A stretch of DNA of 64,000 nt. Source: Escherichia coli O127:H6 str. E2348/69 (lineage in GTDB: Bacteria > Pseudomonadota > Gammaproteobacteria > Enterobacterales > Enterobacteriaceae). Below are positions 59,401 to 64,000 of the stretch, piece after piece (the stretch's first letter is position 1; each line of letters opens with the position of its first letter). The DNA is taken from NCBI RefSeq assembly GCF_000026545.1, contig NC_011603.1; one strand, 5' to 3'. Made by a program: the position numbers.

Positions 59401-62400
59401 CGCTGACTGGTCAATATCGGTGATGTTCGCAAACGGGTTAAAACGCAGGGTTTCACCGTCCAGATACACCCCGCCCATGTTCTCACACAGAGACTTGTAG
59501 CCATCCCCCATGTCGAACACCACGGCAAAGCCTCCGGAGTCCAGCACGCTGCGGATAAGTGGCTGTATCAGCCCGGTTTTACCGGCCCCGGAGGTGCCAC
59601 AGACCGCCATGTTGTAGTTGGTGTTATTCATCCCCCGGAAGAAAATATCGATAAACGCCAGCTGGTTACGGTAGGTGGGTGCCAGCAGACCTGCCGGTGT
59701 CAGGGGGTTATCCGCCACTAACGGCATCAGGTTGGCAACATTAAAGCTCTCTGCGCGCTGAACCACTCCGGCCTCTTTCAGCTGTTTAAACAGTCCTTTC
59801 CCGGCCATAAAGGGCAGGCAGGTCAGGAAATTGCGCATGTGGTTAAAGCGCGGTGAAATCAGCTCAAAACCGTTTTTACGAAAGCTGTTCAGGATGTCCT
59901 GCTCCACTTCCAGCGCCGTTTCATTATTGTCCTTGCAGAATGCTGTGATGTTGAGGAAGTAGGACACCACGGAGGACTGACCGGAGCCCAGCCGCTGACG
60001 CAGTTCCCCCCACTCCTTCGCCTCTTTCTCCACGGACGGAAACCATTTGGCATAGGAGGTCTTCGACTTTTTCTCCAGGTCCATGTACTTCAGGTTGGCT
60101 TCGCTGTGGGTTTTCACCTGGTCTTCCACCACCAGAGTCAGCGTCAGGATGAACGGACAGGAGATGGACAGTTCCGAGTTCAGCAGGTTGCTGTAGTTGT
60201 CGGCCATGTTCCACAGGAAGGCGATTTCCGGGTTACGGGCCAGATGGAAATTCAGGATGCGGGCCGTGCTGTTCCTGCCGTTCTCACGTAGGCCCAGCGT
60301 CAGGTAATCAGCCCGGACTTTCAGATCAAAACTGTCCTCCACACACTGATAATTCAGATCAGAATACGGGTCCAGCTGACGTCTTTTCGGGTACAGGGAG
60401 TCCGGGTTATGGTTAATCATCTTCCCGACAATATCGATAAAGGCCTGTGCATCCACCGTCTGTGTGGTGATACTGGCCCCCTGTAACGACGTCCGGATGA
60501 TTTTCACCAGGTTTTCCATTTCCAGAATGTCGGCCCGGCTTTTTTTCTTCGAAGGAGAACAGTACGAGATAAACACCCGGTAATGGCGCAGGGTCAGGGG
60601 CAGATTCATCCCCTCCGGCAGCGGAAACTGTGTCGCTGCCGCTTTCATATAATAGGCCCGGGTAATGGCGTTAAACCGTTCAGCCTGTTCACCTGACCAG
60701 GAGAACTCACGCAGCCCGTATTCAATCCTGTCACCAACCAGCTGACTGGACATCAGATGGATACACAACGGAATACCGCGCGGCAGTTTGGTGCGCAGCA
60801 TGTGATCGAGGGCCTCCACAATGGACTCATTCGCCCCATTGATGGGAATGGCTTCCAGCATAAAGCCCATCGTGGTGTCATTCATGAACAGACCGGATTC
60901 CTGGTTGTAATCACGGTACGGCAGCAGACGGCTGAACTGCGGGAAGCTCATTTCGCCCAGAACTTCATTGGCCTTTGCGGATTCGTCAGGCAGTTTCAGT
61001 GCTGTGACGAGGGAGTTAACCGCCTGAGTGACGGCCTCAAGTGGGTTATTCACATGAATTCCTTAGTTGAAAAATAAAGCGAGAAATGCGGTAGCCATGA
61101 AGGGAATACCTGTAATTAACGCGCCATTTCCCGGCGCATATACAAAGATTTCTGTTTTCTGAATATCCACTCATGTTCATCCGGAATTAAATCACTATGT
61201 TCTGCGACTGACTTATGCATAATGTTTTCTCTGTCTTTCCTGATACGCCTGACATTCAACGCACAACGTCACACCGGGAAATATTTTCCGCCGGGCTTCC
61301 GGAATAGGATTTCCGCATGCTTCACAGAGATAAACAGGAATACCATGAGCATTTATTTTCTGGCGTATCCGGTTTATTCCTGTCATGGTCAGTTGTTCTG
61401 TCACTGAATATGCTTCATCGGCTTCATCACTCACGGAATATTCCTCCCGACATGTTCTGACACGCTACCGCCCATCCCTTTTCACGCACAGGGCACTCGT
61501 TTTACAGGCAGATTTTGAATACAGAAAGCCCGCCGGCATTGCCGGCTGATATACAACTTCAGGGCCAGTTAATTAATACGTGGTTTTCCCCACGCAGACG
61601 GTTTAATAACAAAAAACACGCTGGATGGCTGATGATAAACATCCTGGTTATCAATATAAGGCGCTATCCATAATGCTGCCGTCTGCTCACCCGTTCTTAG
61701 CGGACGAGGAGGTGTTACCGGCGTAACTGAACTGACCGGAACAACCGTTTTCACTTCCCGGGCAGCGGTAAACAGCGGGCGAGGTGCCAGCAGTTTCTGC
61801 TCCGGATGTGCTGTCACCGCAGGTCTGCTGCCGGACGGAGTGGTCGCGGTGACGGTCTGCACCGGCATTGTCCGGAAGTTCCCTTCAGCCAGGCGCGGCA
61901 GTGATGCCGCAACCGGCTTTGCTTCTGAGGACTGCTCCAGTTTTTTGGCCTTCTCATTGGCCTGCTCCATCGTCATACAGGTATCGGATGTGGTGGCGTT
62001 ACACTCAAATTCCGTACTGGTTCCGGCACAGCCGGAAAGTAATAAGGTCCCCAGCAGAGGAATAAAGAAAGAAATCTGTTTCATTGTCCCTCACCTTTCT
62101 CATCGCAGTTCACAAAATCCTTCTTCAAATCCCTGACCGTACAGGTTTTTACAATGTCAGGATTTTCAAAAACCGTACTCCGTGATGATTTATAAACATA
62201 TGCCACAATGCGTTTCCCACCCGCATCAGGTTCTGGTGCACTGACTTCACATAACGGAGGTGTTATTCCGGACTCATACAGCACCGGATAATTTATTTTT
62301 TTGACGCTGCCATCAGAAACCAGCTTATTCATCGAAGGGCTCCTTATATTTCTGAATAATTCTATCGATTAGTTCTTTCACCGGAACAGATTTTCCGCCA

Positions 62401-64000
62401 CCGGATTGTCCGGCAACCACAATATGCCCCGGAGAAGAAAATAAACTCATCGACATACCCTTCTTCATCACACCGACAGCAGTCATATTAAAATTGTCCG
62501 GCAATGACTCAGAACCGAATTTCTCCGGTGCAGGAAGTACGATTCTTGTGGCGCAGTTACTGAGAACAGCATGCATAAAATCATCTGACACGGTTTGACC
62601 CGGCACAGAGAGGGCTGTAATAACATTAATATTACGCATGTTCATTTTTATCTCCGTTGTTTCTGTTTGTTCTGTCATGAGGAAGATAAACAGGGCATTT
62701 CCTGATTTTTCCCGGCAGGGAAGCGTCTTCCGTATAAACTTCCTTCAGATGTTCATCTGCGGTTACCACCCGGATACATTTCATTTTTCCGGGTCGCACC
62801 GGATATTTCCCGGTGATCGCTGCCAGCGAGACATACATCAGTGCCAGTGTTGCCCATAATGCGGTGACCAGTTGCATCAGTGACCGGTCAGTCTCCCTGA
62901 CATAATCTGCAGCATCAGCCGCGCGGTAATGGCAGATATCCTGTATTTCTGATCTGCCTGAAGAATCAGAGGAAGAAAACCAGCATTCACTGACCGGGAA
63001 CTGTCCGGCAGGTGCTGTTTGTCTTACGAAGTTAATCTCCTTAACCAGTAATTTCCCCGGCGTGGTGTTGTCCTTCCATAAAACAAACAGAGCCATCAGG
63101 GCCATTGTGGCCAGTGGCAGAATGACGGTGTACTTCAGACACCAGAACAGTCCTCGCAGAACCCGGGCGACAACATACCGGGCGGCATGGCACGCCTGAC
63201 GGGACGACATATTATTTGCCATCGTTGCCCCCTCCCTGGCTGCCGGACATAAACTGCTGCGGATTCAGGTTGCCCAGCTGCTTCAGCATCTGGTCAGTAT
63301 TAAAGCCGTTAAGATGACTTTCAGCCGATGGCGGAACAGGAACCGGACTTTCCGGATTGTCTTCTTCCGCTCTGCTCTGCGTGCGTTCCAGCGCCATCTC
63401 TTCCACGGTTTTCAGCTGGAAGCCGTCCTGGAACACCACTGTCACTTCGTTGCCCGCACCAATCGGTATCACCGGGTGATACTGTTCGGCACGTTTGATG
63501 TAGTAGTCACTGAGCGTCTGTGCGGCTTTCGATGCGCCGCCACCGATACCCATTTTCAGGACATCACCAGCCCCGTAAGCGGCTGTGGCACCCAGCCCGA
63601 CAGCCGGCTGGGAGGCGCGCTCCATTCCCTGACCGATACCGTCAACAAATCCCGCGCCCCATGCCCAGCCGAGGATTTTGCCGTTACGCATCACCACTTC
63701 GCCCTTGATACCGTTTTTACCCCGGAAGCTGACATGCCCCTTAATCGGCATATCAATAGTTTTGCCGTCCTTCAGGCAACTGATATTGCGGGTGCGTACA
63801 ATGGCACGCTCACTGGACACATCCCCCCAGGCTTCCAGACCCACAAAACATCCCGTTGCGTCATACGTCTTGCTGTTCGGCATTTCCACCAGGCCGGTGA
63901 TACGCAGCTGCATCGGCACCGTGGATTCATTACCGGTGACAGAGGCATTGGCATCCGCCCCTTCAATCAGCATGGCTTTCGCAAAACTTCCTGACGGAAT

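Follow-up and report, generated by a model that had tools for sequence, protein, structure and literature searches.

The name TrbD is carried by two unrelated proteins of conjugative plasmids. TrbD of the IncP and Ti plasmids, encoded in R751 directly upstream of trbE, is a membrane protein of the VirB3 family, and shares nothing but its name with the F-type TrbD considered here. The F-type protein is annotated in F itself as 63 aa (WP_001345835.1, counted from an internal Met), in R100 as 106 aa (WP_001057307.1), and in pMAR7 as the 321 nt coding sequence of 'conjugal transfer protein TrbD' (WP_001057294.1). Literature searches using trbD, DUF2689, Walker A and pMAR7 returned no experiment or functional statement on trbD, and therefore any role given to it below is read from sequence. 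The searchable literature likewise contains no prior description of a conserved P-loop in TrbD or of its likeness to VirB4.

Position, identity and start site of trbD

The window analysed (64,000 nucleotides of Escherichia coli O127:H6 str. E2348/69, contig NC_011603.1) contains an open reading frame at 62325–62678 on the minus strand that encodes 117 aa from its first ATG and 106 aa from the second Met (residue 12, ATG at 62645–62643), in agreement with the first-pass annotation. Its reported overlap with the end of traP is also present, and amounts to 47 nt from Met1 and 14 nt from Met12. The RefSeq form of trbD begins at the second in-frame ATG and occupies 62325–62645 (106 aa plus stop), with its start overlapping the last 14 nt of traP (62632–63222, minus strand; NF010299, 358.5 bits). 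At the other end, the ATG of trbG (62081–62332, minus strand; NF010307, 199 bits) lies inside the last trbD codons, giving an overlap of 8 nt, and the trbG stop in turn overlaps the traV start. The order traP, trbD, trbG/traV is that of the MPF_F tra operon and places the reading frame where an F-type TrbD is expected; traP, trbG, traV, traR and traC were each identified by their own curated models together with the pMAR7 annotation. A search of Rfam with 61000–64000 gave zero matches.

The window is identical to pMAR7 (NC_010862.1; 100% DNA identity) across 62000–63300, and its reading frame is the same gene as that of WP_001057294.1 and of the F-type TrbD models (NF010282 and the PRK13724 sub-models). 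The 106-residue protein matches the equivalog model NF010282 at 232.9–233.5 bits, against a cut-off of 194, with residues 1–106 spanning the full profile of 106. It also matches Pfam PF10894 (DUF2689) over residues 5–42 at 34.2–38.9 bits, above the 25-bit gathering threshold; this model spans only the N-terminal 40–57 residues because it was modelled on the short F-type protein. Neither VirB3 nor P-type TrbD models appear among the Pfam and NCBIfam matches up to E = 1. The window reading frame is thus trbD, an ordinary conjugation gene that annotation already covers, with a full-length product of 106 residues.

A start-site artefact, one of the explanations offered earlier for the unusual length, accounts for the first 11 residues, since RefSeq/PGAP and NF010282 begin at Met12; it does not account for the difference from F, which is C-terminal. 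The called start is all that distinguishes the database entries for trbD of 106, 117 and 122 aa. The 11 additional codons (MTEQTETTEIK, 62646–62678, minus strand) lie inside the traP coding region, so their conservation is uninformative for trbD. That the true product is the 117-aa protein from the first ATG is improbable, even with 117- and 122-aa forms annotated in some GenBank and nr entries. A Shine-Dalgarno sequence, GGAG, is read at 62652–62655 on the minus strand, 6 nt upstream of the Met12 ATG, and the columns G-G-x-G-A-T-A-A-A-A-A-T-G around this start are invariant in a DNA alignment of five plasmids, whereas no purine-rich Shine-Dalgarno precedes the first ATG (62678–62676). The curated NF010282 profile and PGAP both begin at Met12, and the pSLT-type orthologue has no counterpart of the 11-residue extension. 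The MTEQTETTEIK stretch probably does not belong to the translated TrbD, and translation would start from the second ATG (62645), coupled to the end of traP.

The short allele of F

F TrbD is indeed shorter, as the first-pass annotation expected, at 65 aa from the equivalent Met. Its residues 1–61 are nearly identical to those of the window protein, and the start region, the Shine-Dalgarno and the traP overlap are all alike. It lacks the part containing a strand, P-loop and helix, and has instead a frameshifted tail, NSEI (in ...VMKNSEI*), that stops after 4 out-of-frame codons and 11 nt before trbG, whereas the window trbD overlaps trbG. In the DNA alignment, F (NC_002483) and p13P477T share a clean gap of 104 columns relative to the pMAR7, R100-type and pSLT-type sequences, and in both the frameshift comes directly behind it. 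The segment deleted in F and the F-like short alleles corresponds to 62357–62460 of the window (minus strand), where the strand and the P-loop are encoded.

Both forms are common. The 104-nt segment is present in 2198 PLSDB records, and about 1,370 of the 3,917 PLSDB records match residues 1–72 only, as expected of the short allele. About a third of trbD-bearing plasmids, F included, have the deleted form; this estimate is drawn from counts other than those of an 80-nt F-junction query, which is confounded in that both of its halves get joined in full-length alleles.

A lineage-specific extension had been proposed, and the polarity is the opposite. For the short F form to be ancestral, with some 40 residues including the P-loop-like motif gained specifically in pMAR7, the historical status of F TrbD as the reference, its smaller size and the abundance of the short allele could be cited, but this is highly implausible. 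The additional C-terminal part can be aligned among R100-, pMAR7- and pSLT-type alleles despite their deep divergence elsewhere, and the gap in F is clean, of a length not divisible by three, and followed by out-of-frame read-through to the early stop. Judged from these alignments, the 65-residue F TrbD is a derived allele in which an internal deletion has taken out the P-loop part and put the codons behind it out of frame. It is very probable, taking the evidence together, that the window gene is the full-length trbD of an F-like (MPF_F) operon and starts at Met12, and that it is the F form which is derived and not the window form which is extended. The proposed alignment with F, R100 and pMAR7 gives a divided answer, with the protein short and without the motif in F, and long with the motif kept in R100 and pMAR7. 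The suggestion that there would be nothing unusual here had been made on the supposition of an equally long F protein with a conserved motif; F is neither, yet the suggestion remains largely valid because it is the long form that is common and annotated.

The Walker A-type motif and its relation to VirB4 ATPases

The sequence GQSGGGKS, noted earlier for its resemblance to Walker A, is encoded at 62388–62411 on the minus strand (residues 79–86 of the 106-aa protein) and is conserved across alleles. It stands behind a hydrophobic strand (HIVVAGQSGGGKS, residues 74–86), the arrangement found in P-loop NTPases, and this is kept across allele types. Among 25 diverse alleles, with identity down to 37%, G79, G84 and K85 are invariant and position 86 is Ser or Thr in all but two; the motif is kept in 89 of 95 intact cluster representatives. 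Its variants include GQPCAGKT and GHPCAGKT in R100-type and GMPGAGKT in pSLT-type alleles, and a fourth variant, from S. Enteritidis, keeps it too. R100 TrbD has the same length, architecture and Walker A pattern (GHPCAGKT) as the window protein; their N-terminal halves are about 80–85% identical, and from about codon 73 identity in the C-terminal parts drops to about 29% (dS 0.7–0.9). The genes differ also at their ends. R100-type and pSLT-type operons have no trbG, and in them trbD is directly next to traV; in R100, the end of TrbD (...NKKGEGQ) overlaps traV for this reason.

A chance match, free of evolutionary or functional meaning, is very unlikely. The motif is short, and chance instances do occur in the window, as GRRQSGKS out of frame in traB and as GCTVGGKS in a 462-aa reading frame at about 50 kb. 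However, GxxxxGK[ST] arose in just 0.67% of 200,000 shuffles of the 117-aa reading frame, the motif is conserved in three diverged lineages, and its flanks also match the Walker A regions of VirB4 proteins, with GHT or GNT before the motif and a hydrophobic helix behind.

Both halves of TrbD were compared with ATPase families by profile methods, with shuffled and reversed controls. The C-terminal half (residues 55–99; 62349–62483, minus strand) is like the Walker A region of VirB4- and FtsK-type proteins. Pfam FtsK_SpoIIIE (PF01580) matches 17 of 25 members (E 3e-4) at 20.6–20.7 bits, below its 24-bit gathering threshold, and covers profile positions 23–65 of 221 only, so that TrbD falls outside that family. 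By hhalign this half aligns with residues 466–506 of TraC from the same plasmid (E 9.7e-6, probability 83%) and with residues 486–513 of TrbE (P 1.3e-6), and the Walker A region of TrwK is matched as well. The N-terminal half (residues 8–42; 62520–62624, minus strand), which is the core of DUF2689, is like the VirB4 segment behind Walker B, consisting of a strand (..ATQ..), a helix and a second strand (ATKIFLPN). In 19 of 25 members, residues 7–42 match positions 669–704 of the 792 in TIGR00929 (E 9e-4), a local match over just 36 residues that scores 17.5 bits against a cut-off of 643, far from VirB4 family membership. By hhalign against an alignment of TrbE, TrwK and TraC this half lands on TrbE 723–757 (P 2.8e-4; reversed control 0.35). 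Against a two-sequence alignment of TraC and 4AG5 fragments the match is weak (P 0.034) and in the expected register, and the gain came only after TrbE and TrwK were added.

The VirB4 similarities are short, about 30–40 residues each, and under every curated family cut-off. No significant alignment was found by BLASTP of TrbD against TraC and TraD of the same plasmid, and phmmer and profile hmmsearch of all PDB sequences gave generic P-loops only (ATP synthase beta, TrwB and GTPases) at E > 0.1. Searching 1.84 billion representative proteins with a profile gave 41 matches and no long ATPase relative. All of the matches are short proteins like TrbD, or fragments, except for a repetitive protein of 1024 aa, which was dismissed as it matches through low-complexity SGGG..T.TV repeats. 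A reading in which TrbD is collinear with the VirB4 C-terminus and its P-loop is accidental was rejected because it is specifically with the Walker A regions of TrbE, TrwK and TraC that the C-terminal half aligns. The profile matches are weak but agree with one another, and suggest a resemblance of the two halves of TrbD to VirB4-type ATPases, in reversed order.

TrbD is probably too short for an ATPase. The full alpha/beta core of a P-loop NTPase takes about 200 residues or more, and TrbD has 106, of which 20 remain downstream of the P-loop; these include no Walker B (hhhhD[DE]), no catalytic acidic residue and no hydrophobic strand ending in D or E. An invariant DDF at residues 21–23 lies upstream of the P-loop and has no hydrophobic strand before it. 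AlphaFold2, using an alignment of 25 sequences, gave no confident fold (mean pLDDT 40, pTM 0.27). Since Walker B and most of the ATPase core are absent, we infer an accessory function in the cytoplasm for this small protein, which would not be an ATPase by itself.

Possible origin and role

TrbD would most likely descend from fragments of a VirB4-type secretion ATPase, laid out as the strand-helix-strand that follows Walker B and then strand, P-loop and helix, an order opposite to that in VirB4. Any remaining action would be through binding of a nucleotide or phosphate ligand or through docking on the TraC machinery, and would modulate pilus assembly, not drive it. TrbD would be dispensable for transfer, given that F has no P-loop half. 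We tentatively propose a specific form of this, in which TrbD is a circularly permuted mini-VirB4 whose P-loop is selected through nucleotide binding or the plugging of TraC hexamers, making it a non-catalytic regulator of F-pilus assembly. In the ASCE sheet, with its strand order of 5-1-4-3-2, the strands kept by such a TrbD would be three neighbours.

TrbD may also be a relic, its frame kept open mainly for the passage of ribosomes from traP to trbG/traV by translational coupling while the P-loop fades, which we regard as possible but doubtful. Stop and start signals overlap at both ends of trbD, as such coupling would have it, and the protein has no confident predicted fold. F transfers efficiently without the C-terminal half of TrbD and its P-loop. 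Truncations, frameshifts or small deletions affect many alleles, and these together with the deleted form in a third of plasmids fit a weakly selected gene. In estimates from 7 sequences with few substitutions, dN/dS of trbD is 0.2–0.7 in most pairs, similar to that of traP (0.25–0.5) and indicating weaker constraint than in traV (0.05–0.34), and in some lineages the N-terminal half is near or above 1. For the C-terminal half the values are about 0.4–0.5 between allele types (dS 0.7–0.9) and 0–0.6 within a type. A dN/dS below 1 counts among the evidence for the full-length reading. Specific residues would not be preserved by coupling alone, however, and GxxxxGK[ST] with the ..ELI.. behind it persists in a segment about 29% identical between types, where synonymous divergence is near saturation; without selection on the protein such conservation is difficult to account for.

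Annotation should take the long form as the reference for TrbD and regard the F protein as a deletion derivative, Pfam DUF2689 describing just the half still present in F. This reading frame, among the last of the F-like transfer operon to be uncharacterised, has a conserved phosphate-binding loop and may be the remnant of a secretion ATPase. Should TrbD bind either nucleotide or TraC, it would count as a naturally occurring minimal P-loop polypeptide and might modulate conjugation in the numerous resistance and virulence plasmids with the full-length allele. The biological point is small, yet testable.

Returning to the proposed VirB4 ancestry, the closest comparison is with TraC of F, TrbE of IncP and TrwK of R388. 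One segment of TrbD resembles their Walker A region (GHT-hh-G-x-x-G-x-GK[ST] and the following helix), and a second resembles the strand-helix-strand behind their Walker B (..CAT-x-I-x-L-P..). The VirB4 ATPases are about 800–870 residues long, whereas TrbD has 106, with the two segments in reversed order and with neither Walker B nor the N-terminal domain.

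Identity and translational start of trbD

In this region of the window all tra genes lie on the minus strand, with traB (from 63212 onward) followed by traP (62632-63222), the ORF at the trbD position (62325-62678; 117 codons long if begun at the first ATG, 106 if begun at the second), trbG (62081-62332), traV (61569-62084), traR (61213-61434) and traC (58426-61053), and every neighbor of the ORF satisfies its own curated NCBIfam model. Window positions 62000-63300 are 100% identical to plasmid pMAR7 (NC_010862.1), in which the matching place is recorded as a 321-nt CDS (WP_001057294.1, 'conjugal transfer protein TrbD'). 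Every feature tested places this already known gene in the curated TrbD family. The first-pass annotation had described the 117/106-codon ORF, its GQSGGGKS string (62388-62411, minus strand) and its overlap with traP, and each of these details is correct; trbG is also overlapped.

A start-site issue had been raised as well, and for the first 11 residues the second Met is indeed favored. A GGAG at 62652-62655 lies upstream of the second ATG (62645-62643) with a 6-nt spacer, a pyrimidine-rich stretch lies upstream of the first ATG (62678), and the second Met is the start in both PGAP and the 106-position NCBIfam TrbD profile NF010282 (233 bits, cut-off 194). The called start is the sole difference among public entries of 106, 117 and 122 residues, and because the 11-residue extension sits within traP, its conservation is uninformative on trbD. 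The product is thus taken to be 106 residues long (the numbering used here), and its translation to be coupled to the traP stop; counted from the second ATG, trbD overlaps traP by 14 nt, and at the other end the trbD stop falls within the start region of trbG, an overlap of 8 nt.

Allele types and the deletion in F

A DNA alignment of five plasmids (pMAR7, F [NC_002483], a second short-allele plasmid, an R100-type and a pSLT-type) shows a clean 104-nt gap in F and its like, corresponding to window positions 62357-62460. The length of the gap, 104 nt, is not divisible by three; in F the reading frame therefore shifts and closes four foreign codons later (...VMKNSEI*), for a protein of 65 residues. 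R100 itself encodes a TrbD of 106 residues (WP_001057307.1), the Salmonella pSLT-type gene 78 and an S. Enteritidis variant 71, and all three retain the part missing from F; the long form is therefore ancestral and the F form derived. The polarity is thus opposite to that of the suspected lineage-specific extension: the length difference from F is real, the part in question is not specific to pMAR7, and the F deletion resolves the puzzle. TrbD-like sequence occurs in 3,917 PLSDB plasmids, and in 2,541 of these it spans 80% or more of the 117-residue query. The 104-nt segment could be detected in 2,198 records and about 340 are pSLT-type; the remainder, roughly 1,370 or about a third, have the F-type deletion.

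When pMAR7-type and R100-type sequences are compared, dS is 0.17 in the N-terminal half of trbD, jumps to 0.7-0.9 in the C-terminal half and returns to 0.04 in traV, a pattern suggestive of recombination with a breakpoint close to codon 73 of trbD. trbG resembles an insertion into the trbD 3' end (window 62081-62411 compared with R100-type loci L003 and L017), and the TrbG end (...DEKGEGQ*) overlaps the traV ATG exactly like the R100 TrbD end (...NKKGEGQ*). In the divergent F-type operon of the E. marmotae plasmid NZ_CP099345.1 (L011:1027-1644, L014), traB, traV and traC are directly adjacent, traP, trbD and trbG are missing from their normal position, and trbI is followed by a gene of the TraR/DksA family. 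An unannotated 205-codon ORF, flanked by trbC and by the gene that follows traU, consists of the traP 3' end and then trbD-like sequence (61% identity to pMAR7 TrbD, with GQPCSGKT kept); the traP'-trbD piece therefore seems mobile between sites in F-like operons. Elsewhere in the window (20890-21387, plus strand) are two-frame fragments whose motifs (ILITGPTGSGKT at 21010-21033, plus strand, and VLILDDLEPL further on) look like those of an IstB helper ATPase of the IS21 type, probably a frameshifted pseudogene.

Conservation of the P-loop and possible role

As a small ORF of the PY-driven tra operon, trbD is conserved and translationally coupled, and its full-length alleles keep the P-loop. 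The pattern GxxxxGK[ST] arises in just 0.67% of shuffles of the ORF, and in an alignment of 25 alleles, down to 37% identity, G79, G84 and K85 are among only 15 invariant columns, with Ser or Thr at residue 86 in all but two. The motif is kept in 89/95 intact 90%-cluster representatives (the script gave 88, but the protein P0069, listed as without the motif, carries GQSGGGKS). Identity between the pMAR7 and R100 types is only about 29% from around codon 73 on, yet G-x4-GK[ST]-x4-E-L/F-I is common to both. Values of dN/dS are 0.2-0.7 for most trbD pairs, about 0.4-0.5 between allele types and 0-0.6 within a type (few substitutions) for the C-terminal half, 0.25-0.5 for all traP pairs but one (a near-identical pair at 1.9), and 0.05-0.34 for traV; truncated, frameshifted and internally deleted trbD alleles are frequent. 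Motif conservation and dN/dS thus place the motif under some purifying selection, in a gene that as a whole is only loosely constrained. Many alleles carry a second [AG]xxxxGK[ST] string, A-L/R-S-V-P-G-K-T, at residues 15-22 (62580-62603, minus strand), which we reject as a P-loop; it is not conserved (pMAR7 has Q for K, most R100-type alleles VPDKS) and is accidental.

F, the paradigm of efficient transfer, transfers without the P-loop half, so TrbD is presumably dispensable. The main alternative, that trbD has lost its function and stays open only for coupling, is less likely, because coupling would not keep particular P-loop residues in place where synonymous divergence is saturated. TrbD is most likely a cytoplasmic accessory protein, having no signal peptide or hydrophobic segment. 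If active, it would bind a ligand carrying phosphate, or a partner (TraC, for example), and so fine-tune pilus assembly rather than power it.

Possible relation to VirB4-type secretion ATPases

The TrbD family is tiny. Its profile found 41 matches among 1.84 billion representative proteins, all short except one that is a low-complexity artefact. A 112-residue protein (P0149; L012, Logan contig SRR33321306_86214, 269-607), on a 1.1-kb contig with no recognizable tra neighbors, is a distant homologue (E 5.7e-8) that aligns collinearly with residues 5-104 and has a degenerate P-loop (KRSNNKGS). With only 20 residues after the P-loop, no Walker B and about half the minimal ASCE core size, TrbD cannot work as an ATPase by itself; AlphaFold2 gave no confident model (mean pLDDT 40).

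Two weak, mutually consistent signals suggest a link between TrbD and type IV secretion ATPases. Residues 7-42 match positions 669-704 of 792 in the VirB4 model TIGR00929 (E 4e-4 to 9e-4; 19/25 members; 0/10 shuffled controls below E 0.01), and TrbE PRK13873 is matched at the same place. Residues 55-99 match FtsK_SpoIIIE around Walker A (17/25 members), and this half also has hits to Walker A regions in TraC of the same plasmid (hhalign E 9.7e-6, probability 83%), TrbE (R751) and TrwK (R388). Tested separately against a TrbE/TrwK/TraC alignment, the N-terminal half maps to TrbE 723-757 (VLMATQ...ATKIFLPNVYA; P 2.8e-4) and the C-terminal half to TrbE 486-513 (LGHTFMFGPTGAGKS; P 1.3e-6), with reversed-sequence controls at P 0.12-0.35. 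All VirB4 and FtsK matches fall below curated family cut-offs and were not recovered by BLASTP or PDB sequence searches; TrbD belongs to none of the VirB4, FtsK and VirB3-type TrbD families. Neither the function of trbD nor its P-loop nor DUF2689 (Pfam PF10894) came up in the searchable literature, so the conserved motif and VirB4 likeness are a minor, possibly unreported footnote.

In VirB4 the two segments occur in the opposite order to the TrbD pieces, and we hypothesize that VirB4-like fragments were joined to form TrbD, which would thus be a relic. ASCE domains have the strand order 5-1-4-3-2, in which the retained elements would lie as three neighboring strands; a compact, permuted half-domain is therefore conceivable.
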